DNA from: Mustelus asterias
Taxonomy: Eukaryota
Direction of reading: 5' to 3'
Length of the DNA stretch: 64,000 nt
NCBI RefSeq assembly: GCF_964213995.1
Contig: NC_135816.1
Span: 47,430,001 to 47,494,000 of the forward strand
This document shows positions 20,909 to 63,819 of the stretch, piece after piece. A program made the position numbers and the translations under genes. The notes under the pieces were generated by a model. That model was not told the origin of the DNA. It was given only the letters and a program-made list of their open reading frames with translations, and did not search any database. The first letter of the stretch is position 1. Each line of letters starts with the position of its first letter.

Positions 20909-21075
20909 TTATTTCTTCTGTTTCACTGCAGTAACTACCACACCCACTAAGATAGCAGCAACAGTGAAACCTTGGGCAAAGATACGTGCTCGCATTAGCA
21001 GCTGAGATTGTCGTGTCTTGCCATGTTTGAAAGCGATCAAACCATAGGTAAGAGCACCTGCTGTGCCGAGCATCC
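20909..21075 (-). CDS. HIGD2A: HIG1 domain family member 2A, exon 2
   Basis: Polypyrimidine tract then tatag|GG ATG CTC..; (G)MLGTAGALTYGLIAFKHGKTRQSQLLMRARIFAQGFTVAAILVGVVVTAVKQKK*; type-2 HIG1 QRRQ motif Q-x3-R-x-R-x3-Q present. Confidence 0.97.
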
Positions 21076-21648
21076 CTATAAAAAAGAAAAAAAATTCATT
21101 ATTCATCTTGAAACATTTAAAACTAAAGACCAAGATATTTCAAACTTTAGTTTTGTACATGGAGCCTTAGGAATTAAAAGTTAAAATTGTGTTCCTGTGA
21201 ATTTGCAGAAATCTCAAGCTGTTGACGTCACCAGATCCTGATGTTTTGTTTTAAGCTTTGACCTTAATGAGACAGCAGTGTAAAATATACCCTTTGTAAA
21301 TCTCCACGGTCATCAAATATAAGATAAATAACCAGCAAATCCCAACTAGAACATAATTATCTGGCTTTTTTTTAAGGTGGCTCTCAATTTTGACATCTTG
21401 GTTTACATTATTTCACCAACAAAATATTACTTTTCACCAGTTAAACACTGCATTAAAGTCAAATTTGAAGTGTAACTTGACAATTCAACTGCTTTCTCAG
21501 GATAAAATAAGCCATTTGGACAAATGAGGAATAATTAAGGAAAGCCAGTATGGATTTATCAAGAGCAGAATGTGTCAAGTTGACTTGATTGAGTTTTTTT
21601 TGTTTGAGATGGGGTTGATGAGAATAATGCAGCGGATGTGGTATACAT

Positions 21649-23444: not shown

Positions 23445-24785
23445 AAATGGAGTTGGGGGTAAAGTGTTAGCATGGATTGAGGATTGCTATCTAACAGGAA
23501 GCAGAGAGTTGGAATAAATGGGTGCTTTTCTGGTTGGCAGTTGGTGACTAGCGGCGTGCCGCAGAGATCGGTGCTGGGGCCTCAACTGTTTACCATGTAC
23601 ATAGACGATCTGGAGGAGGGGACCGAGTGTAGGTAACAAAGTTTGCAGATGATACAAAGATGAGTGGGAAAGCAAATTACGTGGAGGATGCGGAAAGTCT
23701 GCAGAGAGATTTGGATAGGCTAAGTGAGTGGGCGAGGATCTGGCAAATGGAGTATAACGTTGACAAGTGTGAGGTTATCCACTTTGGAAGGAATAATAGT
23801 AAAATGGACTATTATTTAAATGGTGAAAAATTACAACATGCTACTGTGCAGAGGGACCTGGGGGTCCTTGTGCATGAATCGCAAAAACTCAGTTTGCAGG
23901 TGATCAAGAAGTCAAATGGAATGTTGGCCTTTATCGCGAAGGGGATGAAGTATAAAAGCAGGGAAGTCTTGCTGCAATTGTACAAGGTACTGGTAAGGCC
24001 GCAACTGGAGTAGTGTGTGCAATTTTGGTCCCCTTATTTGCGGAAGGATGTATTGGCCTTGGAGGGAGTACAGAGAAGGTTCACCAGGTTGATACCGGAG
24101 ATGAGGGGATTAGCTTATGAGGAGAGATTGAGTAGATTGGGCCTGTACTCATTGGAGCTTAGAAGGTTGAGGGGAGATCTCATAGAGACATATAAGATAA
24201 TGAAGGGGCTAGACAGGGTAGAGGCAGAGAGATTCTTTCCACTTAGAAAGCAAACAAGAACTAGAGGACACAGCCTCAAAATAAGGGGGAGTCAGTTTAG
24301 GACAGAGTTAAGGAGGAACTTCTTCTCTGAGGGTAGTAAATCTCTGGAATTCTCTGCCCATTGAAGCAGTGGAGGCTACCTCGTTAAATATGTTTAAGTC
24401 ACAGGTAGATAGATTTCTGAACAATAAGGGAATTAAGGGTTATGGGGAGCGGGCGGGTAAGTGGAACTAAACCACTATCAGATCAGCCATGATCTTATTG
24501 AATGGCGGGGCAGGCTCGAGGGGCGAGATGGCCTACTCCTTGTGGTGAACCGCTGTAGTATTGTCTGTTTGTGTGATATGCCTGGACACCCCCCTGCTGC
24601 CTCAATCCAGGACTCCACCATTCTCTGGGTATAAAGGCGACTGCTCTCCGCCCCTTTTGTCTCAGTTCGGATTAACTATCGGTTCGGGTGTGCTCCAATT
24701 CTTTCGTAAATAAAAGCCTGTTATTTCGCAACAACGAGTCTTTGCGTAATCAATGGTGCATCACTCCTATTTCTTATGTTCTTAA
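23445..24785 (+). mobile_element. Relatively young 5'-truncated CR1 LINE
   Basis: ORFs 23660..24013 and 24017..24364 give CR1 ORF2 RT/C-terminus (SLQRDLDRLSEWARIWQMEYNVDKCEVIHFG..LRGDLIETYKIMKG); the 3' tail is split by a solo LTR. Confidence 0.95.
24541..24763 (+). mobile_element. Solo LTR (223 bp) with 5-bp TSD
   Basis: TG..CA termini (TGTGGTGAACC..GGTGCATCA), perfect TSD CTCCT at 24536-24540 and 24764-24768, TATAAA 24630-24635, AATAAA 24709-24714. Confidence 0.88.
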
Positions 24786-25374: not shown

Positions 25375-25525
25375 CGATTGGCACAAACGGATTTTCCTTC
25401 GTTTTCCTGATAAACTTGTCCCGAAACGCTTCTTCATTGAGTCTGGCCGCCGGGGCAAAACCGTCGATATTGGGCGGCTTCGTCAAATCCAGCACCGAAG
25501 CTGCAGAAAACCGCTTCGCCGCCAT
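25375..25525 (-). CDS. HIGD2A: HIG1 domain family member 2A, exon 1 coding part (151 nt)
   Basis: ATG at 25525; MAAKRFSAASVLDLTKPPNIDGFAPAARLNEEAFRDKFIRKTKENPFVPI(G)|gtgagt; phase 1 joins exon 2; total 105 aa. Confidence 0.95.
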
Positions 25526-26360
25526 CTTCCTCCCCCTCCTCCGAGCTGGGGGGGGGGCAGGTGACCAGAACCGGAAAGAGGGCGGAGACACCCGGCCTGT
25601 GATTGACAGCTCACCGCATCGCCCATCACCCCCCCACCAAAAGGCGGGGCCTGGGTCTGTGATTGACAGCTCACCGCATCGTCCATCACACTCCGAAAGG
25701 CGAGGCCTGGGTCTGTGATTGACAGCTCAGCGCTCCGCCCATCACTCCGAAAGGCGGGGCCTGGGTCTGTGATTGACAGCTCACCGCTCCTCCCATCACC
25801 CCCGAAAGGCGGGGCCTGAGTCTGGGATTGACAGCTCACCGCCCCACCCATCATTCTGAAAGGCAGGGCCTGGGTCTGTAATTGACAGCTCACCGCTCCT
25901 CCCATCATTCTGAAAGGCGGGGCCTGGGTCTGTAATTGACAGCTCACCGCTCCTCCCATCATTCTGAAAGGCGGGGCCTGGGTCTGTAATTGACAGCTCA
26001 CCGCTCCTCCCATCATTCTGAAAGGCGGGGCCTGGGTCTGTAATTGACAGCTCACCGCTCCTCCCATCATTCTGAAAGGCGGGGCCTGGGTCTGTAATTG
26101 ACAGCTCACCGCCACCAATTGTTGTTTACGTCATCGTATTATTTTTCTCTGTCGTATTATCTCAAAACCGAATTATTTAATCAAAGGTTTACTGAGAATA
26201 TTAATGATCAGATTGCTAGCCGTATGATTATTTTTATTGTTAATTAAAAGGGAATTCTGGGAGTGACCGGTTGGGGGAGGGGTCAGAGGTCGGAGTTCAG
26301 ATCGGCGGCGGCGCGGGGGTTCAGACACGCGGCTGAGCTCGAGCGGACACTTGCTGAAAA
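25526..26360. promoter_or_regulatory. HIGD2A/NOP16 bidirectional promoter region
   Basis: Divergent ATGs 835 bp apart in GC/CpG-rich sequence; GC boxes, CCAAT at 26115-26119, CRE-like TTACGTCA at 26126-26133. Confidence 0.8.
25594..26113. repeat. Minisatellite, 10 copies of a ~54-bp unit
   Basis: Unit GGCCTGGGTCTGT(G/A)ATTGACAGCTCACCGCTCCTCCCATCATTCTGAAAGGCGG; decamer cores start at 25600, 25660, 25716, 25770, 25825, 25879, 25933, 25987, 26041 and 26095. Confidence 0.98.
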
Positions 26361-26467
26361 ATGCCGAAGGCGAAAGGGAAAAACAGGAAGAAGAAGTTTA
26401 ATTATAAATCCGATCGGAAAAAGCTCAAAAGGAAGATGATGAAGAAAGTGGCCCCGCGGATCGAGTG
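26361..26467 (+). CDS. NOP16: Nucleolar protein 16, exon 1 coding part (107 nt)
   Basis: MPKAKGKNRKKKFNYKSDRKKLKRKMMKKVAPRIE(C)|gtaagg; matches the NOP16 basic N-terminus MPKAKGK..APRIEC. Confidence 0.96.
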
Positions 26468-26625
26468 GTAAGGGTGGCCGGGGCCCCGGGCTGGCAGCCG
26501 GGCAGCCTGTGTTCACTGAGCAGGCGGCTGCTGCTGCTGCTTATCAAAACATCCATCAGGCACAGGATTGTTCCGGCGCAAGAAAGAGAGCCATTTGGCC
26601 CATCGTGTCTGTATTGGTGACACCA

Positions 26626-26897
26626 TGGTTAGCACTGCTGCCTCACTGCGCCAGGGATCCGGGTTCGATTCCGGTGTCTGCGTGGATTTGCACGTTCTCA
26701 CCGTGTCTCCGTGGGTTTTCTCCGCGTGCTCCGGTTTTCTCCTACAGTCCAAAGATGTGCGGGTTAGGTTGATTGGCTATTGCTAAATTGTCCCTTGGTG
26801 TTAGGGAGTTAGCAGGGTAAGTACGTGGGGTTAAGGGGATAAGGCCTGGGTGGGATTGTTGCAGGGCCAAATGGCCTACTTCTGCACTGTAGGGAGT
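26626..26897 (+). mobile_element. HE1-like SINE in NOP16 intron 1
   Basis: TGGTTAGCACTGCTGCCTCAC..GGTTCGATTCC B box; CR1 tail AAATGGCCTACTTCTGCACTGTAGGG; sits within a minus-strand CR1 tail. Confidence 0.9.
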
Positions 26898-38915: not shown

Positions 38916-39128
38916 CTGTATCTTAGAACATAATAGCCACAAATTTAGTATGTTTAATAGATTCTCAGCTGAAATGCCACATGTATCATCCATGGAATGA
39001 AAATGAGAGAAGTCGTACTCCCAGGAGATGAATTTCTTTTAGCGAATAAGACTATTCTCAGCAGTCCATTTTCATTTCCACTTTCCTGCTGTCCACACAA
39101 CAGAAGGCTTCCGTCCAATGCACCTTAC

Positions 39129-39304
39129 CTGTTTATTTGCCAATAGCACTAGTGGTAGTAATGGATCTTGTTTCAGCAGCCGATGCAGCTCCTGCCCAGC
39201 AAGAGGCAAACGTTCCTCGTTTGCAGAATCCACCACATAAATTAATATTTGGGCTTTGTTTAGGTAGAGATTCCAGTAGGAGCGCAAGTTGCAGCTACCT
39301 CCAA
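39129..39304 (-). CDS. ARL10: ARL10 exon 3 (176 nt)
   Basis: ttacag|TT GGA GGT AGC..AAA CAG|gtaagg; (I)GGSCNLRSYWNLYLNKAQILIYVVDSANEERLPLAGQELHRLLKQDPLLPLVLLANKQ. Confidence 0.96.
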
Positions 39305-40774
39305 CTGTAAAATAAAATGTATCTTCAAGAACTAAACAGGATATTTTGTGCATTTTTTAAGATTAAAAGGAATGTACTATTCAGATTGCAACTTGCATTT
39401 TCTAGCATTCCTTAAATGCTGCCAGGTGTCTCAAAACACTAAGTGAACGCTGTAATGTCCTAATCATGTTAGGGGGTCATGGGTTTGAAACAAAAAGGAA
39501 AAAAAATGTGGTTTGCACACAGATTCAAAGTAACTCACAACAGATTAATTAAAAGAGATGTTCCCTGCACAGAGCAGAAACGAAACTAAACGTCTGTGAA
39601 ACAGTCCAATGACATCACCATCAAATCATACAATCAGCTCTTAAAGCAATCATGCAACTACTCAAATATATATCAAATATCAGGCTGGAGGGAAAAGGGC
39701 AAGAATCTGAAATTAGTTGTGAAGAAAAGGTTTTTATTCAATAGAGAGGATGGCGGTAACGTTGAAAATAAATAGATATTTTCAGAGGACAGGAAGATTA
39801 TGATTAAACCTGCCAATAACGATGAAACAGAAGTCAAGGTGTAACAGCGTTAAAGCAAAGTGTGTATGCAGAAACATGAAACTGGAAGAATCAGCAATGC
39901 CATGGAGGAGTTTGAAAACCAAGAATGTGAAAGAATGTATTTGGTCTCTGGGAACCAGCAGAGCTTAGAGGAAATTCTGAGCAAGGACACAGACTGCCAG
40001 ATTCTCAATGGATTGTAACTGGTTGAAGGAGCATGGTCAAATCAATTCAACAAAGTTGTGCCTCGATGCTGGGATGCCTTCACCTGAACTGTGCTGTAAC
40101 CAGTGTCACAGTGAATATACAGATATGCATTTTATAGAATGGTCATTTACATCAAACACACAAAAAATTTAATAAATGTATTTGAAAGATTGTATTATAC
40201 AATTCAGAGGTTTTGGGGTACTGCAAGCTGTTCTCTAATAGCAACTCAATCAAACAGGAGCAGCATCACCCACAGCCAAATATTAACTATCTTCCTTACA
40301 AATGTGTCCCCTAATGATTTAAATATCCAAGAATTTGGCTATACCCTGGGTCTGTTGACCTACAAACACTTAATATTTCACAGAGATCACTCCAGTGACC
40401 TTTGACTTAGTTTACTTCTAAAACATGAGCAAAGACATCAATAGAGAAAATAGATGCTACTTGTTCAATATGCTAATAGATTAACCGATTTGCAAATAAT
40501 TACAAATAACTGAGCCAAAGAAAATGGTGAGGCTGAATAAAAACTGAACCTGTGTATCCATGTTAATTGGACAATATAATTCAGAGAACGATAACTGCAA
40601 TTTAATTGAAATTATTCTTTCCACTTCTTTAACAGTCCCCACTGCCTCTAGTCATGTCAAAGCTGCTTTGTTAGCTTCCTCGCCATCTTTATTCAATGCT
40701 GTTGGAATAATTTACGCTATAGTAAAAGCGGATTGAATGTCAATGATAAATGTCACACCAACATTCCCCATATT

Positions 40775-41330
40775 TTTGTATTCATTCGCGGGATGTGGGC
40801 TTTGCTGGCAAGGCCAGCATTCATTGCCCATCCCTAATTGCCCTTGAGAAGGGTGGCGAGCTGCCTTCTGAAACCATTACAGTCCATTTTTGTAGTTACT
40901 AACACAGTGCTGTTAGGAAGGGAGTTGCAGGATTTTGATCAAGCGACAGTGAAGGAATGCCGACATAGTGTCTTCCATATAAGTCAGGATGGTGATGTTC
41001 CCATGTATCTGCTGCCCTTTTCCTTCTAGATGGTGGTGGTCATGGGTTTGGAAGGTGCTGTCTAAGGAACCTTGGTAGGTGGTACACACTGCTGCTACTG
41101 CGTGTCAGTGGTGGAAGGAGTGAATGTTTGTGGAAGGGATGCCTATCAAGCGGGCTGCTTCATTCTGGATAGCGCCTTGGTTCTTGGGTGTTGGAGCTGC
41201 ACTCGTTGAAGCAAGGGGAGAGTATTCCATCATACTCCCGAATTGTGCCTTGTAGATTGTGAACAGGCTTTGAGGAGTCAGGAGGCAAGTTACTCGCCAC
41301 AGGATTCCTCGTCTCTGACCAGTATAGCCT
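40775..41330 (-). mobile_element. CR1/L2-superfamily LINE 3' fragment (second family)
   Basis: ORF 41105..41341 LTPQSLFTIYKAQFGSMMEYSPLA..IQNEAARLIG; 3' tail GGGCAATTAGGGATGGGCAATGAATGCTGGCC shared with the SINE at 46721. Confidence 0.8.
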
Positions 41331-42702
41331 AACTGCTGCATGAACCCATCTGCCTATATAGTTATAACTTATGAATTTCTATACTACTTACCACAACAAG
41401 CTGTGTAGCATCTGTAAACCTCCATTGATTGGTTACAACCATTGTATTTCTGTATGGTACAGTAAAATATTGGGTGGTTGTATGTTGTGCAGGTGGGACA
41501 CATGCAATTTAGTAAAAGACTGATTTCTTAAGTACTGTATTGTTGTAAATAATCTTCCTCCATTGTTCCAACCTGCTCAAACAGCAGGGTTTACATCAAT
41601 TTTAATTTCTGCCAGATCTGCTGGATTCTCCACCGTTGAAACTCCAATAGGAATTCTGCTCCTTCGCTGCTGAATGTTGATAATTTGTATAATTAAGATT
41701 GTACAGTTATCAAGATTAACTTAAATTATCCGTCATCTTGAAAGTTCTACACCAAAGATTACCAGCATGCTTGTTTGCCAAAATTATGCACCTCACACAA
41801 ATTTCTGCTTATAGACTGCAGTAAATGACTTTTAAAAAAACCCTCGTTTTCATTAGCTTAGTGATTCTCAATTTTTCTTTCCTTTTTTCATCATTAATGG
41901 CCTTCCAAATTCATAATCTAATCTACTAAGAATTCAATTTTACATTCAACAGCTTCCTTCATAGGACATTCCCTTGAATTTCTTTATCAATGTGATAGCT
42001 GAATCACTATTGTTCTCTATTCGGCTTGGTGTGTTTACAGTTCCTCAAATCTCTCATATCTCTCGCTGGTATAACTAGAATCTATACTTTAGAAGGTCCA
42101 CCTTTACCCCTTCATCTGTGAAAATGTTGACCTTGCTATCGCTGACTTCAAACAGCATTCCATAGCTCTCTCTTTTATGCCAAATACCTTTCTGTTCAAA
42201 ATTTGAATATTGCTCCTATATCTGTCAAGGTTCTGTTAGGATTCTTATACTTATGGGAAAAGCTAGGCTTTTCCTCCTCAACTGAAAATATTCCATTCTA
42301 TAGATTTTCCCTCTTTCTTTAACCTCAATGTTGCAATTATTTAATAATTTGTTTCCCAGACTTGTAAAAACTAATTTTGGCTTTACCTAATCACCAATAT
42401 TGTGTCTCCACTTACTCTGTTGAACTCTGTGATGTACCTTTGCATTTTGCTTTGGCATCATGCATCTTATTGACAACCTCATGTAACAGGATTGCTTTTC
42501 CTGTGGATAACAAGTTATATTCAAGTAGCGTCTTTAAAGTAATAAAATGTTTCAAGGCACTAAACACTGGAGGATTATGAAACAAAATATAACATGAGAT
42601 GTTAGAGCCAATGAACAAAAGCTTGGTCAAAGAGAGATTTTGAAGAACATTTTCTTTGAACAATTCTTCTGAATCTTGCATCTTGTATCATGTTGTACTC
42701 AC

Positions 42703-42871
42703 TTTCAAGGAAATCCAATTTGCAGCCTCCTGCGTGTATGCAGACTGCATTAAAGCCTTGAGTAGGTGATGTGCTTTGCTTCACTGTGTGATCGGCCAAA
42801 CAGTTGAGAATGCTGGTTTTTCCTGCACCATCTAAACCAAGAACCAGAATCTGCTTTTCCCTAGGTTGGAT
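42703..42871 (-). CDS. ARL10: ARL10 exon 2 (169 nt)
   Basis: aaacag|ATC CAA CCT..GAA A|gtgagt; IQPREKQILVLGLDGAGKTSILNCLADHTVKQSTSPTQGFNAVCIHAGGCKLDFLE; P-loop GLDGAGKT and switch I PTQGFN. Confidence 0.96.
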
Positions 42872-43389
42872 CTGTTTGAAAAAAACTCCAATTAATAAAG
42901 AAACTAACTATGCAATTAAATAAACATCAAGCTAATGAAATCACAATACATAAGAGTTAAAAAGGGTAACGGTTATTACATGTAACAAAGAGACAAAACC
43001 CATCTAATATGCTGGACAAATATTGATTCTTCCATCATCAATATATCTTCGAGCCACAAATCTTAATTTGCTGTGTAAGACTTCCACTTTACCCCACTAT
43101 CAGCATACATACATTACTTCATTGTCCATTCCAATATAATGCTAGCTGCTGAGATTATGGATAAAATATTCTGGGATGTATGCCAGTTTACTGCTACTGA
43201 AATTATGTCACAGTATCCTAATCAAGCCTTCTCCCATACATACAAGGAAAGCAACAAAGAAGCTAAAATCAGAAGTGTAAAGGATAAATTAAAAGAAAAT
43301 ATATATGAGAGGCTGTGGAAGAGATTCACCAGAATGGTTCCAAGGATGAGTGAATTGAGCTACAAGGTTAGTTTTGAGAAGCTAGGGTT

Positions 43390-43669
43390 GGGTGGCACAG
43401 TGGTTAGCACTACTGCCTCACAGTGCCAGGGACTCAGGTTCGATTCTTGGCTTGGGTCACTGTCTATGCGGAGTCTATACGTTCTCCCCATGTCTGCGTG
43501 GGTTTTCTCCGGGTGCTCCAGTTTCCTCCCACAGTTTGAAACATGCTGGTTAGGTGCATTGGCCATGCTAAAATCTCCCTCAGTGTACCCAAACAGATGC
43601 TAGAGTGTGGCGTCTAGGGGATTTTCATAGCAGTATAAGCCTACTTGTGAGATTAATAAATAAATAAAT
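43390..43669 (+). mobile_element. SINE with HE1-type head and alternative tail, nested in a CR1 (approx. 43300-44045)
   Basis: GGGTGGCACAGTGGTTAGCAC..GGTTCGATTC; tail ends TAATAAATAAATAAA. Confidence 0.88.
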
Positions 43670-44359
43670 TTGGAACAAGAGGTAGATGGGGAGATCTGAT
43701 AGAGGTAAACAAGATTATGACAGGCTTAAGACAAGGTAAAAAGCTGTTCCTATTAGCTAAATCATAAGAACTATGGGACAGAGATTTATGGTTTTGAGCA
43801 CGAGATACAGAGGGGTGTGAGGATTTTCTTTATGCAGCAAGTTCTAATGACCTGGAACTTACTGCCCACAAGAAAGCAGAGATGATTAATGATTTCAAGA
43901 GGAAACTAAATGGACATTTGAGGGAAATAAACTTGCAGGGCTACAGCAACAGAATGGGACCACTGGAAACTAACTGGATTGCTCTACAGAGAGCCAGCAT
44001 GAAATTGATGGAACAAATGGCCTCCTGTGCCATAATGACTATGACAATTAAGTAACTGAAGTAGAAAGCATGTTTAGGTTAAAGGAAAACACTGCCGATG
44101 CAGGAATCTGAAACTAAAAAAGAAAATGCTGGAAAATCTCAGCCGGTCTGACCACATCTGTGGAGAGAGACTAGAGCCAAGCATCTTTAGGTAGTGGACT
44201 GTTTAAAAATATCAAAATTGATCGATGATAGATCACAGAGGCTTTCAACTTTCTCCAATCAATTCACTGCTGAGGCTACTTTCCACCTGCTGTTGAATAG
44301 AACAAAGAAAAAGTATAAAATGTTAAATTGCAGTTGAAATAAGCTTTTCCTGTAACTCC

Positions 44360-45860
44360 GCTTGTCCCACTCATGCCAATTCCACATAGAACTACAAATA
44401 TCTTCTCTTTGGGTGTATGTCCACTTCCGTTTTGAAACCCATGATTAAATCTGCCTCCACCATACTCTAGGGAAGTGCATTCCAGAACCTAACTATTTGC
44501 TGCATAAAAGAGTTTTTCCTCATGTCACCATTGACCAAAGAAACAATCACTTTAAAATTAATGCCCTATGGGTTCCTGATTCTTCCACCAATAGGAACAA
44601 TTTCTCCACTTACTCTGCCTAGATCCCTCATGATGTTGAGCACTTCTATTACATCACCTCATCTCTTCTGTAAGGATAACAACCCCAGATTCCCCAATCC
44701 ATTCACGTAACTGAAGTGCCTCAACTCCAGAAATATTCTCACAAATCACTTCTGAACCTTATCTAAAACTGTCACATCCATCCTGAAGTGTGGTGTCCAG
44801 AATTGGGCATAGTAATCCACTTAAGGTTGAACTGGTGTTTTATACATGTTGATCAGAACTTCCTTGCTTTTGTACCTCTATTCATGAAGCTCAGAATCCC
44901 ATATTGCATTTAACCACTTACCTGTCACCTTCAATAATGTGTGCATATACCCCAAAATTTCTGTGTATCCTTTATTTTATATTGTCTCTACTCATTCTTC
45001 CTACATAAATGTATCACTTCACTCCTTTCTGCATTATATTTAATCTGCCACATGAGCACATATTCCACCAGCCTGTGTCCTCTTGAAACAAGTTTTATGT
45101 CATCTGCAAATTTTGAAATTGTGCCCTGTACACACAAATCTAGTTCATTTATAGAGATCAAGAAATGGTATACTGAACTCTGGGAAACCCCACTGTGTAC
45201 CTTCCTCTAAGAAGCTACCATTCACCACTACTCTATTTCATTACTGCCACTGTCACATTTATTCCATGGGCATCAGCTTTGTTGGCATTGTGTTGCATTT
45301 GTTTAAATGCCCTTTAGAAGTCCAAATACACCAGATCAGCCTCATTACCCTCGTCAATCCTGTTACCCCATCAAAAAATACAATCAATCATAGTTATTAA
45401 ACACAATTTGCCCTGAACAGAGTTGATCACCATGCCACACACTATGGTCTGAGCTGATGTCTGTGTTGTCTTTCTTAAGGAGCAATTTGCTACTTCCCTG
45501 GCTTCTCCCCATAGTCCTGCTCATTCTTCCTTTTCAGATAATAATCCAAGCTCCTCTTGAATGCCTCAATTGAACCTGTCTCCACCACACTCTCAGGCAG
45601 TGCATTCCATATCCTAGCCAGTATATGCATGAGAAAGGTTTTCCACATGTCACCATTGCTTCATTTGCCAATTCTTTTAAATCTTTGCTCTCTGGTTCTC
45701 GATCCTTCCACTCATGGGAACAATTTCTACTCGCTGCTCTGTCCGGACCCCTCACGATTTTGGATACCTCTACCAAATCATTTCTCAACTTTCTCTTCTC
45801 CAAGGAGAATAGCCCCAACTTCTGCAATCTTATCAATGTAACTGAAATTTCTCATCCCCG
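44360..45860 (-). mobile_element. Two adjacent degenerate CR1 fragments
   Basis: ORF 45534..45836 contains RLQKLGLFSLEKRKLRNDLVEVSKIV; FAD-type remnant (CATCTGCAAATTTTGAAATTGTGCC) near 45100. Confidence 0.75.
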
Positions 45861-45864
45861 TTTT

Positions 45865-46369
45865 ACCTCGCGGCTATTAAAAAGCTGAAATTGCGCAAGT
45901 AGAGGTTGGAAGCTGCGCAGTCATTAAGGCAGTCCGAGTTGGAGCAGGTTTGAGGGAATTCAGAGGCTTGATCTTCGAAAGTGAAATGTTTGAAGTCCCT
46001 CATAAGGGAGGCAGAGTTTCAATAAGACCGGTTCACTCAGTGTTAACTGATGTCGCCGGATGGATTGCTGAGAAATCTGTGGGATCTTGGTGATATTTGC
46101 TATTTACTGTAGTGTGTAGTGTTCAACCACAGTTTACCTGTTAATTCACTTGTTATTCATATTAATCCTGCATGTTAGAATACAAGAGATTAGCAAGTTT
46201 TTTTTTCTAATAAAGTTTATTTCTGTTTCTTCAAAGCCTGTGGAATCTTGAGTCTTTATTCCCTTAGCAAGAGTCTTAAATCTCAAACGTTGTCAATCTT
46301 AAACAGAATATTATTGGTCCCTAACTGAATCTTACCAATAACCTGGGGATCTGGTCCAAGATCATAACA
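45865..46369 (+). mobile_element. Probable partial LTR
   Basis: AATAAA near 46209 and a 3' end ..GATCATAACA typical of LTR termini; no 5' TG end or TSD found. Confidence 0.35.
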
Positions 46370-46720
46370 CTCCCTAGGTTATAAAAAGGAGAATAATTTG
46401 GGATGATGCCCGCTGATATCTGCTATTGAGTGATCCCTTTGGAAAATGCATGTTTGTGGCTGTTTTGTGATTATCCACATGGAATAACATGCCAAACTCA
46501 CTATCTTGACTCGCATCTAGAAAACAGTCCTTTGGGTGAGCGGGTGAAGGGCTGTATACAAGGAGTTGGCATAATCTGGAAAGAGAAGCAGAAAACCTGG
46601 GAAGGGCAGAACATAGACTTTATGCTTTGGAACCTCATCCAATTTGCTGCAGCAATGGCTGCACATGCTTAAGAAATACATAAAAAGCCAAGCAACAGAA
46701 GTAGGCTGTTCAGCCCCTTG

Positions 46721-47075
46721 AGGGAGGCAATGGCTTAATGGTATTACCGCTAGACTATTAATCCAGAAACTCAGCTAATGTTCTGGGGACCCGGGTTCGA
46801 ATCCCGCCACGGCAGATGGTGGAATTTGAATTCATTAAGTAGCATCTGGAATTAAGAATCTGCTGATGACCATGAAATCATTATCGATTGTTGAAAAAAA
46901 AACTTCTGGTTCACTAATACTCTTTAGGGAAGGAAATCTGCTGTCCTTACCTGGTCTGGTGTACATGTGACTCCAGACCCACAGCAATATGGTTGACTCT
47001 CAACTACCCTCTGAACAAGGGCAACTAGGGATGGGTGATAAATGCTGGCCAGCCAGCGACGTCCAAATGAATTTT
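46721..47075 (+). mobile_element. tRNA-derived SINE with a tail from the second LINE family
   Basis: A box TGGCTTAATGG, B box GGTTCGAATCCC; 3' end GGGCAACTAGGGATGGGTGATAAATGCTGGCC matches the LINE tail at 40800-40846; head fragment also at 17545-17635. Confidence 0.85.
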
Positions 47076-47684
47076 TAAAAATCCCTATTTCACCATTCAG
47101 TGAAATCACAGTTTTTGTATCTTAACTCTGTCCATCTGTCTTGGTCCATATCCTTTATACTCTTCTAGCAAAAATCTCAAAATCAAAACTATTAATTGCA
47201 CTTACATCTAGTTTTTGTGGGACAAAGGTCTACACTTCTAACAGCTTTTGCATGAAGAGATATTTAAAGTTATGTTCCCTTGCCCGAGACTCCACTGCCA
47301 AGAGAGAGAGATTTCCCTCTATCCCATCAATTGCTTTCAAAATCCTAAAGAAAGCTCAAAATCACCCCTTAACCTTATATATGCCAAGAAATACAAGCAC
47401 ATTTGATGTAATCTCTTCTCATTATGTAACCCCAGGAGCCCTGATAATATTCTGGTGAAACCATGCTGAACTCATTCCAAGGCCGACACATCCTTTCTAA
47501 GGTGTGCTGCCCAGAACCATACAGAGTACTCCAGATTAGTCCAACCAGGCCTTTGTATTGCTGTAGCAAAACTTCACAACATTTATATTCTGACACTCTA
47601 GTTATAATGGCTAACATTCCATTAACATTTATTTCCACTTGTCTAGTACATTTTAATGATCGGTGTGCATGACTCCCTAGTAGC

Positions 47685-47963
47685 TACAGCGCAATGGTTA
47701 GCGCTGCTACCTCATTTCTAGGGATCTGGGTTCAATGCCGGCCTTGGGTGACTGTGGAGTTTGCACATTCTCCCTGTGTCTGCGTGGGTTTTCTCCGAGT
47801 GCTCCGGTTTCCTCCCACAGTCCAAAGATGTGCGGGTTAGATGGATTGGCCATGCTAAATTAACCCTTAGTGTCCCAAGATGTTAGGTTAGGGGGGGAAA
47901 ATATCAGAGTTGGTGCAGACTCAAAAGGCCGAATGGCCTCTTCTGCACTGTAGGGATTTTATG
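47685..47963 (+). mobile_element. HE1-like SINE in ARL10 intron 1
   Basis: Head, body and CR1 tail as in the other copies. Confidence 0.9.
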
Positions 47964-48360
47964 AACATTCAATCATAATTTCATACGAGGTTTATAATTC
48001 CAGATTTATTAATGGAATTTAAAATCCCACCACCTACCATAGTAGAATTTAAACTCATATCTTGGGCCCCTGGATTACTAGTCCAGTGAAATTCACCACC
48101 ACCTCTCTCCTGATGGTGGGACAGGACATATTTAGGAATGGTAATGTGGTACTCTGGAACATTGACCGTAATATATGATCTTCATGTCTGACCGTGTCTT
48201 CAGTGGTAATGTCACTGGACTAGTAATCCAGCATCCTAGGCTGTTGCTTGACTTGTTTGTGGGATAACTCTCCCAATTGCCTTCTGGAAGGCTATTTTAA
48301 CTCCATTCATTGAAATTCCCCACCTGCTACTTAAGTAACTTCATCAAAAAAAAACCAAGG

Positions 48361-48481
48361 TTAGGCTCATTAGACACGACTTACTCTTTACAAATCTATG
48401 TTAGCCTTCATTAAAAAAAAGATTAGGCTCATTAGACACAATTCACCCTTTATCAATCTATGTTAGCCTTCTGTAATCGGC
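48361..48481. repeat. ~62-bp tandem duplication (CR1-derived)
   Basis: TTAGGCTCATTAGACAC..ATCTATGTTAGCCTTC occurs at 48361 and 48423. Confidence 0.85.
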
Positions 48482-49241
48482 TAAATCACTCTACAGTATT
48501 CAACTATGCTAACCAGACTATTTATTTCCTTTTTAAAGCAAATGCATGCAGCATTTTTAGCCACATTTACTCATTGAATAATTTAACTTTGGCACCATGG
48601 TCTATTGCAGGCAAAATATACTACTAGGGAAATGTTTAATGATAGTTCTGAAATTAATGAATTTGTACTTCACTTAAATATAAAATCATTAACAGACGCG
48701 ACTAAGCTGGATGAAGTCTGAATCATACCACAGATATTGTTTTATCAGTTATGTTAGTGTATCGTAATTTTCAGAGCTTTAATGAATTTCAAATTCAGCA
48801 AAACAAACTTATTTTGAATACTAGTAACCCAAAACATGATCATTTCTATAACTTTTTCCCTAATGGTTTCTTTGTTCAGTAGATTACAGCATATTCTTTA
48901 GTTCATGTCTGAGCCTCCTTATGTCATTCATCGCTGTTTATGGCTGAGAAGGAAGTAATTCGGCCAATCATAGATCCGTACCAATTCTTTATTTGGACAA
49001 TCCAAAAAAAAAACGCCTCCTACCTCCCCACAGTCCTACATCTTTCTGTATCAATTGCTCCACCACCTTTCCTTGAAAGATGCCATGATGCCTGCCTCAG
49101 TTTATGATAAAGCATTTAATTTTCTGTACAAAGAAATACCAAACCACATAATCGTAATAGGATTTTATATCGACCGCAGCCAGTTCCCGTCTCCTCCTTA
49201 TGCACAGAAGAAATGCACCTAGTTTTTTCCTTGCTTTTTAC

Positions 49242-49376
49242 CTCTTTGATACGCTCGTACTCTTCCTCGAAATAGCATCTTTTGCCGTTGAAGTACTTCC
49301 AGGAGATGAGCAGAACGCTGCCCAAGATTGCAACTACAGCTCCTATTGCAGCTCCGATTTGGCGCAGGTGACCCAT
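49242..49376 (-). CDS. ARL10: ARL10 exon 1 coding part (135 nt)
   Basis: ACCATGG Kozak context at 49376; MGHLRQIGAAIGAVVAILGSVLLISWKYFNGKRCYFEEEYERIKE|gtaaaa; N-terminal hydrophobic segment like human ARL10 (LGSVLFILWK); phase 0 fits exon 2; total 219 aa. Confidence 0.85.
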
Positions 49377-49439
49377 GGTTCCACGTTGAGGAACCAGCAC
49401 AAGAAACGTCGCCTCGCTTCTGCGCTCAGCCACTACTTG

Positions 49440-49600
49440 CTGCTTGGACGTCACGCCGCAAACTCACACCCAGCAATGATTCAAGCTCTTTCATTCTGAC
49501 AAGTAACGTGCAACACGGACCAAAGAAAGTTAAGAGACGGGTTTAGCATTTCCTGTGCACAGAGCGATTCTACTTACGGTTTGATTGGCCCAAAATCTTC
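49440..49600 (-). promoter_or_regulatory. Candidate ARL10 promoter
   Basis: CpG-rich stretch with a CRE-like GACGTCA (approx. 49447-49453) and a minus-strand CCAAT (plus ATTGG near 49584). Confidence 0.45.
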
Positions 49601-52672: not shown

Positions 52673-53786
52673 GGGCCCGATTTTACCATTGTGTTGCGCC
52701 CGTATTCGGGCGTGAAAACGCGGTAAAGTCGGGCATGAGGCCATTAACGGGATCCGCGCCCATGTCCACACAGATGGCCACTTTACCGAAACACGGGAAT
52801 GGCCGTGATCCGCTTCGCGCTCGAAACGGACGCAACGGCGATTAAAATGTATTTGCATGTATTTCAATTGAATTAACGAACTGCCCGCCCAACTTTATCA
52901 GCATTTCCCCCTTTACCACCACATTCGCCGATCCGGAATTGTGCTGAAATGAACCTGCTGAATAAAAGTCTGAATCGGGCGCTCCAGCTGCTGAAGAGTG
53001 AATTCAGAGCTTCCAACGGCTCTCTGACTCTGACCGGTGGTGGGGGGGAGGAGGGAGGGGGGTCAGATCATTCTCTGGTTTTGGGGGGGGGGGGGGAGGA
53101 GGAGGAGGTGGGTCAGATGTATCTCTGGTGGGGAGGAGGGGGGGCAGGGAGGGCCAATTGTTGTCTGGTGGGGAGGGAGGAGGAGGTGGGTCAGATGTTC
53201 CTCTGGGGGGGTGGGGGTGAGTGAGGCCAGATCGTTCCCTGGGGGGGGGGGGAATTGAGGCCAGACCATTTCTTGGGGGGGGGGGGGAGGAGGGAGGTGG
53301 ATAAGATCTCTGTTGGGGGGGAAGGCCCGATCGTTCACTGGTTGGTGGGGGGGGGGGGCAGATGGACCTCTGGTGGGGGGGAGCAGGGGGGTCCGCTGCC
53401 ACTTTGCGGGTGATCGGTGGGGGGGGGAAAGGGGCCAGTGAGTCGCGATCGGTCTGGGTAGTGGGGGGGGGGGTGGAAAAGGGGGACAGTGATGTCTGTG
53501 GGGGCCATCGCTCCCACTTTTCGCTCACGGGCACTTTCTCCACTTCCTGCGGCCCGGGAGCGATGTGACATGGGCGCGCTTTTTCAAATTTGTTTCTAAC
53601 TGCGCATGTGCAGTTCAGTGCTCCGGTCATTTCAGGCGTGCTAAGCCCCGACCACAGCGCAAATGGGACCCGTGATTTTTTTCTTCAGGCTAAGTGTTAA
53701 TGGGGGTGCCTGAAAGCAGATTTCCAAGTCAGATCTGAATTACGCTCAGATTCAGCACTTAGAATGAAAATGGTAACATCAGGCCC
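52673..53786. mobile_element. Non-autonomous TIR DNA transposon (PIF/Harbinger-like), 1114 bp
   Basis: Left end GGGCCCGATTTTACCATT versus reverse complement of right end GGGCCTGATGTTACCATT (16/18); 3-bp TSD GAT at 52670-52672 and 53787-53789; no transposase ORF; superfamily inferred from the GGG ends and 3-bp TSD. Confidence 0.78.
53036..53485 (+). repeat. G-run-rich degenerate tandem region (G-quadruplex prone)
   Basis: Many G6-G13 runs alternating with GGTCAGAT/GCCAGAT-like spacers. Confidence 0.85.
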
Positions 53787-55874: not shown

Positions 55875-56783
55875 ACTATCCTCCCATCCTCTAGTTGGCT
55901 GGACTTGCGGATAGCGATGAGCATTGTCGGGCAATACAGCAGGATATAGATAGGCTGGAAAATTGGGCGGAGAGGTGGCAGATGGAGTTTAATCCGGATA
56001 AATGCGAAGTGATGCATTTTGGAAGAAATAATGTAGGGAGGAGTTATACAATAAATGGCAGAGTCATCAGGAATATAGAAACACAGAGGGACCTAGGTGT
56101 GCAAGTCCACAAATCCTTGAAGGTGGCAACACAGGTGGAGAAGGTGGTGAAGAAGGCATATGGTATGCTTGCCTTTATAGGACGGGGTATAGAGTATAAA
56201 AGCTGGAATCTGATGATGCAGCTGCATAGAACGCTGGTTAGGCCACATTTGGAGTACTGCGTCCAGTTCTGGTTGCCGCACTACCAGAAGGACGTGGAGG
56301 CGTTAGAGAGAGTGCAGAGAAGGTTTACCAGGATGTTGCCTGGTATGGAGGGTCTTAGCTATGAGGAGAGATTGGGTAAACTGGGGTTGTTCTCCCTGGA
56401 AAGACGGAGAATGAGGGGAGATCTAATAGAGGTGTACAAGATTATGAAGGGTATAGATAGGGTGAACAGTGGGAAGCTTTTTCCCAGGTCGGAGGTGACG
56501 ATCACGAGGGGTCACGGGCTCAAGGTGAGAGGGGCGAAGTATAACTCAGATATCAGAGGGACGTTTTTTACACAGAGGGTGGTGGGGGCCTGGAATGTGC
56601 TGCCAAGTAGGGTGGTGGAGGCAGGCACGCTGACATCGTTTAAGACTTACCTGGATAGTCACATGAGCAGCCTGGGAATGGAGGGATACAAACGATTGGT
56701 CTAGTTGGACCAAGGAGCGGCACAGGCTTGGAGGGCCGAAGGGCCTGTTTCCTGTGCTGTACTGTTCTTTGTTCTTTGTTCTT
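55875..56783 (+). mobile_element. Young 5'-truncated CR1 LINE with an uninterrupted 269-codon ORF2 C-terminus
   Basis: ORF 55895..56704 is open throughout (IQQDIDRLENWAERWQMEFNPDKCEVMHFG..RPHLEYCVQFW..RGDLIEVYKIMKG); tail (GTTCTTT)n. Confidence 0.96.
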
Positions 56784-59866: not shown

Positions 59867-62800
59867 GCCGAAACCCCGGACAGCAGGAACGAGGACACCG
59901 ACAACGCCCAAGGCGGAGATCGGCCCGCAAGCCCAGCACCAACCGAGGGCTACACGACACCGACCATGTCACCCAGTCGTGGTCGGGGCCCTGACGCAGG
60001 GTCGGACTGCTACCTCAGCCCTGCAGCCCTGCAGAATTTCGTCAGCGCCACAGGAATGCAGCACCTGGAGGAGGCTGACTGAAGGACACGTAAGAACTGA
60101 CAAACCTTTTAAACATTAAAATGTCTTTAAAGTTTGCATCCTTAAATGTTCGCAGTGTTAAAGACAGCCTGAGATGTGCGGCCAGCTTGTCCTACCTGGC
60201 CAAGATCAAGGCCGACCTGCTGTTCCTGCAGGAGTGTGGAATACCACACCTCAGCAACTACAGGCGCTGGTCGAGTGTGTGGTCCCACGGACCGTCCATC
60301 TGGTCAGGGGGGAACGACTGCCGTTCATCCGGCCTAGGCATTCTGCTGCGGGGGGGGCAACTTCACCGTCTCCGAAGTTAAGGAGGTGGTGGGAGGACGC
60401 CTCCTCGTAGCAGATGTCACGTACAAAAACTGCCCTCTCAGGCTGATTAATGTGTATGCCCCTGCCGTCAAGACCGAGCGGCTGGCACTCTTTGAACAGC
60501 TGCCACTGCTACTCACCACCTCCAGGCCAATCATACTGGGTGGGGACTTTAACTGCATCATTGACAAGGCCGGCCGATCCAACAGGGCCGAAAGTAAACT
60601 GGACGCTACGTCCAGAGCCCTGCTGGAAACAGTCAAAGATGCCAAGCTGCTCGACGTCTTCAGCAATCCAGCAGACGGAGGGCAGCGTAGATACACGTGG
60701 TCGCGGCCAGACGGGTCTGTCCGCTCCAGGATCGACTTCATGTTTGCATCCCGCGCGCTCACGGTCAGGTCCACCGACGTCAAGCCGGTGTTCTTCTCTG
60801 ACCACTGCCTCCTGCTGGCAGACTGTCAGCTGGAGGAAAACCAGAAAGTGGGCAGGGGGTCCTGGAAGCTTAATGTAGAACTGTTGACCCCAGAGAACCT
60901 CGAGGAACTCAAGAGGGTTTACCACGGTTGGAGAACCGTGAAACCCTTCTTTGAGTCTCCATCGCTCTGGTGGGAAACCATCAAGGGCAACATCAAGAGG
61001 TTCTTTATCCGAAAAGGGGTTCAGAAGGCCAGGGAGAGACGGGGGGAAATGTCCCGACTCCAGAAAAGCATGCAGGAGCTACTCCAACTGCAGTCGATGG
61101 GGGTGGATGTCAAGGAGGACCTCCGGGAGGTGAAGAGCCAGCAAGCCTCGCTCTTTGCCTCGGAGGCCTCCAAGGTTATCTTCCGGTCCAGGGTCCGCTC
61201 CGTGGAGCAGGACGAAACGTGCTCGCGCTTCTTCTTCCAGAAGGTGCACAGAGAATCCTCTGTGATCACAAGCCTGAAGGAAGAAGATGGCTCTGTAGGG
61301 TCATCGCAGTCTGACATTCTGAGGATCTGCTAATCCTTCTATGCCAGACTGTATGACCTGAAGCCAACAGACAGCACGGCCTCCCAGTCTTTCCTGTCGT
61401 CTATCACGCAAGTCTTGGACGACGGCGAGCGGGAGAGCCTGGACAGACCGGTAGCTCTGGATGAGCTGACAAAGGCAGTCGAGTCCCTTCAGAAGGGTAA
61501 AACTCCCGGTAGCGACGGCTTACCGGCTGAGTTTTACTCGGCGTTGTGGGACTTGACGGGCCCGGACCTCCTGGAAGTATACGAGAGTATGCTTCTGGAA
61601 GGCAGCATGTCAGAATCCATGAGGAAAGGCATCATTACCCTCATCTACAAGCAGAAGGGGGAAAGGGAAGAAATTAGAAATTGGAGACCTATTTCACTAT
61701 TGAATGTGGATTACAAGATTCTGGCCAAGGTCATCGCCAACCGGGTCAAGTCTGCTCTGGGGTCAGTAATCCATCCTGATCAAACCTGTGCTGTACCCGG
61801 CAGGAAGATCTCTGATAGCCTCGCACTACTCAGGGATACGATCGCCTACGTGCAGGACAGGCAGGTGGACACCTGCCTCATCAGTCTAGACCAGGAGAAG
61901 GCGTTTGACAGAATATCGCACAGCTACATGATGGATGTGCTCTCCAAAATGGGATTTGGGGAGGGAATCTGCAATTGGATCCAACTGCTCTACACAGACA
62001 TCAGTAGCGCAGTTTCAATCAATGGGTGGGAATCAGATATGTTTCAAATCAGGTCTGGAGTCAGGCAGGGCTGCCCTCTCTCCTCCGTCCTTTTTGTGTG
62101 TTGCATTGAACCCTTTGCCGAGGCCCTCAGAAGCGACCCAGGCATCAAAGGGGTCACAATCCCAGGCAGCGGAGGGACGCAAGTCAAAGCCTCCCTCTAC
62201 ATGGATGACGTGGCTGTTTTCTGCTCGGACCCCTCGTCTGTTCGCAGGCTTCTTCGAGTCTGTGAGCAGTTCGAGCTGGCCTCGGGAGCCAAAGTCAACT
62301 AGGGTAAGAGTGAGGCCATGTTCTTTGGGAACTGGCCTGACACATCCTTTGTCCCTTTCACCATTAGGGTAGACTACCTCAAGGTGCTGGGAATATGGTT
62401 CGGAGCGGCAGGGGCATGCGCCAAAAACTGGGAGGAGCGCATCGCCAAAGCCAAACAAAAATTGGGATTGTGGGAGCAACGCTCCCTCTCCATCACTGGG
62501 AAGAACCTTGTGATCCGATGCGAGGTTCTGTCCGTGTTGTTGTACGTGGCGCATGTGTGGCCTCTCCCCAAGTCCTGCGCAGCAGCAGTGACCCGGGCCA
62601 TCTTCAAGTTCATCTGGAGATCAAAGATGGATCGTGTCCGCAGGGAGGCGATGCACAAATCTCCAGAGAACGGAGGGAAAAGCGTTCCCAACGCCGCCCT
62701 CATCCTGATGGCCACCTTTGTGTGCGGCTGCATCAAGCTGTGTGTAGATCCTCGGTACAGTAACAGCAAGTGCCACTATTTTTTGAGGTTCTACCTGTCC

Positions 62801-63819
62801 CAAGTGTTGCGGAGGATGGGTCTGGCCACATTGCCGCGGAACGCTCCAAGTAGTTGGACCGTACCGCAGCACCTGTCCTTCGTGGAGAAATTCTTCCGGA
62901 AACACACCCTTGACCACATGGCTATCAAGCAGTGGTCAGCACGTAATGTCCTTGAGGCCCTGAGAGAAAAGGAGACGGCAGATCCTGTCGGATGGTTCCC
63001 TGAGCGGACTGTCAATGTCATTTGGCAGAACGCCTCATCACCAGAACTCACAAACAAGCACCAAGACCTGGCTTGGCTGGTGGTGAGAAGGGCACTCCCC
63101 GTCAGATCCTTTATGCACGCCCGGGGTCTCAACCTCACCGCACGCTGCCCTCGAAGCGGCTGCGGGGCTGATGAGACGGTCGCACACCTCCTTGTGGAAT
63201 GTGCCTTTGCAAAGAAGGTCTGGAACGAGATGCAGTGGTATTTGTCGCGGTTCGTCCCGGGCAGCTCGGTGACGCAGGACTCTGTGCTCTACGGGCTGTT
63301 TCCGGGGACGCACACCGAGACAAATATCAACCGCTGCTGGAGGGTCATCAACTCGGTGAAGGACGCGCTTTGGTCCGCCCGAAACTTGCTGATCTTCCAG
63401 CTGAAAGAATTGTCCTCGACCGAGCGTTGCAGACTGGCACATTCCAAGGTCCAGGACTACGTGCTCAGGGACGCGCTCAAGCTTGGGGCAGCCGCCGCCA
63501 AGGCACAATGGGGAAAAGCCACCGTGTAAAGCGTCTCAACCGAGGCAGATCGAGGGCCGGGTAACTGCAGAATACCCTCGGCCTGCGTAACTGTGTGCCA
63601 ACCTGAAAAATAACAGCACACAGAAAACTCTGACACATGTATATAGTTTTAAGAAATGAAATGTAACGGAATGTAATGTTTTTTGTAAATGAGCACGGTA
63701 TTGGACGGTAAAAATGATTCTTTTTTCCACTGTTTATGACTTTTGGATCTGTAATTTTACAATGTTTTATTGGAGAGTTTTTTTTTGTGTGAATAAAGTA
63801 TATTTTTGAAATTAAAAAA
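59867..63819 (+). mobile_element. 5'-truncated Tx1/L1-clade non-LTR retrotransposon with 15-bp TSD
   Basis: TSD AACACAACAGATTTG at 59852-59866 and 63820-63834; ORF1 C-terminal remnant ending 60082; ORF2 60121-63529; AATAAA 63792-63797 and a short A tail. Confidence 0.95.
60121..63529 (+). pseudogene. Disrupted Tx1-type ORF2 (APE endonuclease, RT, CCHC knuckle), approx. 1135 aa if repaired
   Basis: APE motifs SLNVRS, LQE, NVYAP, GGDFN, SRIDF, SDH; RT motifs KTPGSDG, NWRPISLLNVDYKI, LDQEKAFD, GVRQGCPLS, YMDD (62198-62209); C-x4-C-x7-H-x4-C knuckle; lesions are +1 G in a G8 run at 60350-60357, TAA at 61331 and TAG at 62300. Confidence 0.95.

Follow-up and report, generated by a model that had tools for sequence, protein, structure and literature searches.

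A minisatellite carrying TALE-type decamers and GC boxes between the divergent HIGD2A and NOP16 genes of Mustelus asterias

Results

A tandem array between two divergent start codons

In the window (the whole stretch of Mustelus asterias DNA analysed, 64,000 nucleotides), HIGD2A on the minus strand and NOP16 on the plus strand are arranged head to head, with their ATGs at 25525 and 26361, and 521 of the 835 bp between these start codons form a minisatellite of ten units with a period of about 54 bp (Table 1). Our preferred reading, which we place just on the probable side of even, is that this is an old, locally amplified promoter minisatellite, whose clustered TALE and Sp/KLF sites would act redundantly, most strongly beside HIGD2A, and would tolerate alterations of their number and sequence. 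Ten copies covering about 520 of the 835 bp had been described in an earlier sequence-only reading, and its counts of unit spacings, decamer types, junctions (seven of nine), the single CCAAT and the following TTACGTCA were all reproduced here.

Table 1 Features of the HIGD2A-NOP16 interval and flanking exons (positions in the window)
Feature	Position	Strand	Basis or content
HIGD2A coding exon 2 (5' edge approximate)	20909..21076	-	PF04588, E 8.6e-18; best named homologues are elasmobranch HIGD2A
HIGD2A coding exon 1	25375..25525	-	ATG at 25525, GT donor after 25375
Repeat-derived ORF, 195 codons	25483..26070	-	Overlaps the HIGD2A start in a different frame; no Pfam match
Unique HIGD2A-proximal flank	25526..25591	-	GC box 25580-25585, CCGGAAA 25571-25577, pyrimidine run CTCTTTCC on the minus strand
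Minisatellite of about 54 bp, ten units (nine full and a partial tenth)	25592..26112	+	Tandem Repeats Finder, unit alignment
Units 1-4, diverged (60, 56, 54, 55 bp)	25592..25816	+	Intact TGATTGACAG at 25600, 25660, 25716, 25770; GC box of unit 2 broken
Unit 5	25817..25870	+	GGATTGACAG; GC box broken
Perfect period-54 block, 247 bp (units 6-9 and partial unit 10)	25866..26112	+	All TAATTGACAG; GC boxes intact
Sole decamer-CCAAT pair	26095..26119	+	TAATTGACAG, GAC to CCAAT 12 bp
CRE-like TTACGTCA	26126..26133	+	Lost in organism C through G>A at 26130
AT-rich spacer, then GC-rich NOP16 5' region	26134..26360	+	Sequence
NOP16 coding exon 1	26361..26467	+	GT donor at 26468; splice at 26467 in run X5

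Tandem Repeats Finder reports the array at 25640-26112 (8.7 copies, 93% matches), far above all the others of the 13 rows it returned for the window. The 12-mer ATTGACAGCTCA occurs ten times between 25602 and 26097, with spacings of 60, 56, 54, 55 and then five times 54 bp, and GGCGGGGC is present at seven of the nine unit junctions. The decamer within the units has three forms, TGATTGACAG in four units, GGATTGACAG in one and TAATTGACAG in five. Units 6-9 are identical, with unit 5 differing from them by 3 edits and unit 1 by 14, and the perfect block at 25866-26112 looks like the recently homogenised part of the array. Head-to-tail units within the range of about 6-100 bp (period 54, score 763, unit alignment), lying between two divergent start codons in CpG-rich DNA, a promoter region as judged from the start codons, make this a promoter minisatellite; it is not a canonical DECA-CCAAT element.

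The divergent gene pair proposed earlier was confirmed on both sides. The HIGD2A exon-1 peptide is identical to the first 50 residues of Mustelus asterias XP_078087193.1, and exon 2 matches PF04588. For NOP16 the exon-1 peptide is too short for a homologue search, so the identification rests on splicing and Pfam: PF09420 is matched by two of the five exon pieces scanned, both under the curated cut-off because the pieces are short, and a relative's contig (run X5, which covers NOP16 exon 1 only) follows the genome up to the GT donor after 26467, where it passes into the next NOP16 exon. This spliced contig starts at 26337, 24 bp before the ATG, a position that, coming from a contig, does not map the transcription start.

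Bidirectional promoters are those of divergent genes whose 5' ends lie less than 1 kb apart, and the two start codons, 835 bp apart, fall within this distance. The ratio of observed to expected CpG is 0.55-1.0 over the promoter, compared with about 0.2 in the intron beyond. The first decamer stands 75 bp from the HIGD2A ATG; on the other side about 255 bp, including the AT-rich stretch, separate the last decamer from the NOP16 ATG, and 250 bp the array itself. The layout is thus asymmetric, and the intact decamers of units 1-4 face HIGD2A. The unique flank beside HIGD2A is likely the start region of this gene, and its pyrimidine run CTCTTTCC resembles a TCT-type initiator. Between the start codons there are 17 minus-strand ATGs, of which 16 lie inside the array, none of these in the HIGD2A frame; the 195-codon ORF is relevant only if HIGD2A transcripts start within or beyond the array.

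Motif content of the units

The intact decamer TGATTGACAG is the published DECA motif, made up of a PBX (TGAT) and a PREP (TGACAG) half-site, which in zebrafish accompanies CCAAT and Sp/KLF motifs (PMC6023610; 10.1101/720102). The mouse consensus, tGAxtGaCag, is found mostly at promoters (PMC4395233), and cooperative binding of PREP1-PBX1 to the decamer has been confirmed in a study whose available part does not cover the TAAT variant (PMC5240567). The consensus TGAnTGACAG is found in units 1-4 only (4/10), and is absent from the recently multiplied units, with TAATT in units 6-10 and GGATT in unit 5, whose decamer still fits the looser core GAnnGAC. The five youngest copies, TAATTGACAG, alter the strongly conserved G of the PBX half-site, and this change is predicted to break it. 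The array of PBX-PREP sites seen by the sequence-only reading thus holds as far as TGATTGACAG is concerned, but six of the ten copies miss the consensus, and the copies multiplied last are the mutated ones. Departures from consensus affect these six decamers and two of the nine GC boxes. The expectation for one exact decamer in 835 bp is about 0.001, and the ten decamers are not ten independent events, because one motif was multiplied.

A single CCAAT is present between the start codons, at 26115-26119, and in eight of the nine other copies CCCAT, at 14 bp, stands in its place. The TALE/NF-Y/Sp2 element described previously consists of GAnnGAC, 11 bp and CCAAT, and structure models tolerate 12 bp but not more (10.64898/2026.02.16.706105). 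The NOP16 end of the shark array resembles this element in having the decamer followed by CCAAT in the same orientation, with GC boxes nearby (10.64898/2026.02.16.706105; PMC6023610; 10.1101/720102). It differs in its spacing of 12 instead of 11 bp, in a paired decamer that fails GAnnGAC, in four intact decamers that have no CCAAT at the right distance, and in its tandem multiplicity. The composite (GAnnGAC, 10-12 bp, CCAAT) occurs in none of the ten units: unit 10 has CCAAT at 12 bp but reads AAnnGAC, and the remaining units have CCCAT at 14 bp or nothing. The decamer-CCAAT pair at the array end appears to be what is left of such a composite. Units 6-10 match exactly TAATTGACA, a reported MEIS1-DRGX preference, determined in vitro with human proteins (PMC11325038). 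No G-quadruplex consensus was found in the array.

The period had been proposed to keep the sites in phase on the helix, which it does not. A step of 54 bp corresponds to a rotation of 34-69 degrees at 10.6-10.4 bp per turn and of about 51 degrees at 10.5, and at the latter value the ten decamers stand at 0, 257, 17, 69, 154, 206, 257, 309, 0 and 51 degrees, spread round the helix.

Constraint on the motifs is only hinted at. Among the six distinct units, the motif columns carry 4 changes in 18, compared with 14 in 36 elsewhere (p=0.23), and the 22-bp core round the decamer carries 4 changes, compared with 14 in the 32 other columns (p=0.08), six gap-rich columns being omitted from both counts. 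The left flank, whose likeness to the unit would point to an origin in place, resembles it weakly: a score as high is found in 138 of 1040 real control windows, and the score is reached by 23-637 of 2000 shuffles with the six decamer-side bases and by 187-1297 without them. The 44-residue N-terminal extension of the zebra shark protein was back-translated, and can encode no exact decamer and no TGACAG, while a one-mismatch decamer is encodable; shuffles reached its match in 16 of 150 cases for the flank and in 24-108 of 150 for the unit. A window frame, GRVSPPSFR (25523-25618, minus strand), resembles GLVYPPVFR at the start of this extension. Some 56 nt further on, an offset the size of one unit, GSGH is repeated in the extension, and the stretch in between may hold a one-mismatch decamer, a CCAAT and a GC box; these likenesses are not significant on unbiased tests.

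The array in another sample and in a second species

Contigs from 4 of 11 runs were compared with positions 26033-26600 only, differences near piece ends not being listed. Run X4 is another sample with the same species label, run X6 is organism C, a second species, and the coverage of run X10 is 26174-26313 only. We took run X4 as DNA, because intron and exon are covered alike. In this run an 84-bp contig with 0 differences is the 54-bp unit closed into a cycle, and other contigs have differences that fit the diverged units 3-5. Since the units are recovered in another sample, the array is no assembly artefact.

Organism C differs from the window by 32 letters and 22 gap letters over about 493 bp, with flanks about 4-9% diverged; the 24 differences listed are distributed as 9 over 248 bp of upstream sequence, 5 over 107 bp of exon and 10 over 113 bp of intron. 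The NOP16-side edge of the array is the same in both species, and one contig of organism C spans NOP16 intron 1, the CCAAT box and the last decamer, with no change listed in the CCAAT or in the decamer-CCAAT spacer. We also found in organism C a tandem joint that goes back 78, several unit variants, and a 1535-bp contig with three consecutive units, of which one ends in a unit-1-like C-run and the next has the GCGAGG variant of unit 2; this contig probably derives from the HIGD2A side. In another contig, unrelated sequence gives way to a match at 26061.

A multi-unit array with the same edge is present in organism C, and the array is therefore old; only the identical block looks recent. At 26073, 101 of 122 of the unit depth in organism C has C, as in units 1-4, so that both the T variant carried by units 5-9 and the perfect block seem specific to the lineage of the window. 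The recent polar expansion proposed earlier survives in part: the NOP16-side block was recently homogenised, but organism C, with flanks diverged to this extent, is already multi-unit, which goes against a recent expansion from one module, and the polarity reflects homogenisation of one end and not the birth of the array. With the mutation rate of the epaulette shark (7e-10 per generation, PMC10587355), the divergence of 4-9% would correspond very roughly to tens of millions of generations, a figure from hand arithmetic with a wide interval that is likely too high. No species with a single module was found in the contig comparison, and none of the 59 loci from a vertebrate HIGD2A alignment and metagenome scan had a NOP16 exon or promoter match. 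At 26249-26262 the stretch GGGAATTCTGGGA, for which no difference is listed in organism C, resembles a degenerate site for ZNF143/Staf, a factor linked to bidirectional promoters.

Summed unit depth was 23-35 in run X4, against 4.2 for unique flank, and 96-121 in run X6, against 11.7, sums that overlapping contigs inflate and that are not a copy number. At 80% likeness the unit depth is only about 5-10 times that of unique flank in the two species, about one array's worth in both, unlike that of a dispersed family. No other copy of the unit was found in the 64-kb window, viral contigs gave 0 matches and Rfam gave none for the array; the many copies elsewhere that mark a dispersed satellite or transposon are thus not seen, as judged from the unit depth in X4 and X6 and from the window. 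An assembly artefact, a dispersed element and a module absent from orthologous promoters were named beforehand as findings that would count against a promoter array, and the results for the two shark species are in its favour in all three respects: the units recur in another sample, the related organism C has the module, and the unit is, by its depth, of low copy. In run X4 the perfect-unit contig has a depth of 11.8, compared with 4.2-5.7 for single-copy contigs, which is 2-3 fold where the window predicts 4.0-fold; for this lower depth simulations gave P values of 0.004-0.19 over nine settings, depending on baseline and read length, and contig depth is not copy number.

Orthologous promoters in other vertebrates

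Mouse Higd2a has a head-to-head partner, D13Wsu177e, which we take to be Nop16. The arrangement is the same as in the shark, and the annotated starts are 116 bp apart (PMC4395233), leaving no room for such an array. Prep1-null ES cells show Higd2a lowered by 7% and its partner by 8% (adjusted p 0.03 and 0.04). The ES-cell Prep1 table of that study, of about 3,900 rows, names no peak for either gene and lists no peak start or end at chr13:54.60-54.69 Mb (PMC4395233), which argues, for this one cell type, against a PREP module common to all vertebrates. Symmetric co-tuning of the two genes, as suggested earlier, does not follow from the layout of the shark array, nor is it backed by a Prep1 peak at the mouse promoter in the ES-cell table. 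Work on the human HIGD2A promoter points to E2F1 (PMC7074167). Seven files of a zebrafish Prep supplement, one of them truncated, gave no higd2a or nop16 text, and the peak files among them may carry no gene names. In HEK293 cells, only one of seven DECA/NF-Y elements drove a reporter (PMC6023610).

Discussion

How the array may have arisen and may work

The data can be combined in the following model. A piece of about 54 bp of the HIGD2A-NOP16 CpG-island promoter, with a TALE decamer and a GC box, would have been tandemly duplicated in place; the array is found in both species, and this duplication would predate the split from organism C. Later turnover, latest on the NOP16 side, may have proceeded by slippage or unequal exchange, as minisatellites generally do, and in its course one mutated unit, with TAATTGACAG, appears to have been copied into half of the array, where it is now found. 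PBX-PREP/MEIS binding to units 1-4 beside HIGD2A and Sp/KLF binding to seven GC boxes would keep the promoter open, and for NF-Y the single CCAAT at the far end would be the only place to bind. Promoter output would probably be saturated by few sites, and copy number and single-site losses would therefore be tolerated, not selected as a dial.

This redundant-cluster model is backed by the gradient among the units, the array of organism C, the low copy number, the CpG-rich promoter and the p value of 0.08 for the core, and also by the co-occurrence of DECA sites with Sp/KLF and CCAAT motifs in zebrafish (PMC6023610); the tolerance of loss is backed by the six of ten decamers and two of nine GC boxes that are off consensus. 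It is weakened by the p value of 0.23 for the motif columns, the weak likeness of flank and unit, the lack of a listed mouse Prep1 peak, and a search that found no single-module species, and further by the low proportion (1/7) of DECA/NF-Y elements that are active as reporters (PMC6023610).

Alternatives

A neutral passenger is the alternative that we take most seriously, while considering it unlikely: an unstable GC-rich repeat would be tolerated between two core promoters, its inner copies idle, and only outer elements would matter, namely the flank beside HIGD2A, possibly together with unit 1, the terminal CCAAT and the NOP16-proximal region. Motif columns that are not significantly constrained (p=0.23), a consensus-breaking variant that spread through five of ten units, and the loss of the CRE-like site in organism C all fit this view. 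The mutation rate of sharks is moreover low (7e-10 per generation, PMC10587355), so that the array could persist under little selection, and promoter repeats are common, with only about 6-7% of human UTR or regulatory VNTRs associated with expression (PMC8024321). Both lineages nevertheless retain the array, the visible variation is mostly in the spacer and not in the core, and the intact decamers are those nearest a start region, where human VNTRs (<=100 bp from the TSS) are twice as often eVNTRs (PMC8024321).

It is less probable still, and in our view improbable, that the array is a dial, in which unit number and the TGAT/TAAT ratio segregate and jointly set the output of HIGD2A and NOP16, the TAATTGACA copies swapping PBX for a TAAT-binding homeodomain partner of MEIS/PREP. 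The 247-bp perfect block should be mutable, human promoter VNTRs act as eQTLs, 65% with positive sign (PMC8024321), among them the TRIB3 33-mer (10.1101/2020.12.16.423078), the MEIS1-DRGX preference for TAATTGACA is on record (PMC11325038), and both mouse genes fall together in Prep1-null cells, by 7-8% (PMC4395233). But the decamers are out of phase, the layout is asymmetric, the added copies lack CCAAT and the PBX half-site, and the mouse change is small, with no Prep1 peak listed behind it. More doubtful again is a bolder version, according to which concerted evolution is rewiring an array of TALE sites that has persisted over tens of millions of generations: the change from TGATTGACAG to TAATTGACAG, copied through the NOP16-facing half including the CCAAT-paired site, would there have replaced PBX-PREP/NF-Y input by MEIS/PREP and TAAT-homeodomain input, HIGD2A would keep the old sites, and unit number and composition would set the balance of the two genes.

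We give very little weight to a long HIGD2A 5' leader, in which upstream ATGs and the overlapping 195-codon ORF would damp translation in proportion to copy number. The array does hold 16 minus-strand ATGs, none in the HIGD2A frame, and the ORF overlaps the start codon, but a period divisible by 3 generates such ORFs of itself, this one has no Pfam match, and the HIGD2A ATG is preceded, at a distance of 50-60 bp, by a GC box and an initiator-like run. Hardly more credible is a dispersed satellite, a transposon or LTR fragment, or an assembly artefact; the organism C contig that matches from 26061 after unrelated sequence would suit a dispersed element, which is opposed by the diverged units and perfect cycle in another sample, by a unit depth of about 5-10 times unique flank, and by the lack of a second copy in the window and of viral or Rfam matches.

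Relation to known promoter repeats

Human eVNTRs such as the TRIB3 33-mer, the AS3MT 36-mer and the CSTB 12-mer share with the shark array GC-rich tandem units by the start site, the presence of transcription-factor motifs in each unit, and motif variants among units (PMC8024321; 10.1101/2020.12.16.423078). Unlike these known expression QTLs, the shark array is known from sequence; it differs also in its head-to-head promoter, its TALE decamer and its presence in two shark species. Among 10,264 human VNTRs genotyped 163 were eVNTRs, twice as frequent <=100 bp from the start (PMC8024321), and a 7.9-fold enrichment near starts has been reported (10.1101/2020.12.16.423078). The kind is thus not new, because promoter repeats that bear binding sites are well known in humans; for the HIGD2A-NOP16 array itself, a search of titles and abstract openings, with most subscription papers outside its coverage, returned no published description. 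What makes the array useful is its age, a turnover that can be followed from one unit to the next, and a variant that alters the motif and is caught in the act of spreading. Should binding and expression turn out to depend on which units are present, the locus would offer a clean natural case in which homogenisation of a repeat changes the factors acting on a two-gene promoter, in a lineage that mutates slowly. Otherwise it serves as a marker locus and illustrates the amount of structural alteration that a housekeeping promoter can bear.

Other features of the window

Frames resembling exons of a small GTPase of the ARL9/ARL10 type, with LVLGLDGAGKT at about 42600-42900, lie on the minus strand at 39072-49499, convergent with NOP16, which matches the human order HIGD2A-NOP16-ARL10. 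NOP16 intron 1 contains an interspersed SINE-like repeat at 26616-26895, to which at least 10 copies found in the window are related, and HIGD2A intron 1 an insertion of about 220 bp in a LINE 3' end (24541-24764) with TATAAA and AATAAA, like a small solo LTR. A near-intact LINE ORF2, whose endonuclease, reverse transcriptase and C-terminal part occupy successive long frames interrupted by stops or frameshifts, is found at 60094-63529 on the plus strand. Many shorter reverse transcriptase fragments, presumably CR1-like, occur elsewhere in the window (for example 23633-24364 and 55895-56704), and a degenerate G-rich tandem array, with periods of 34-50 bp, lies at 53042-53293.
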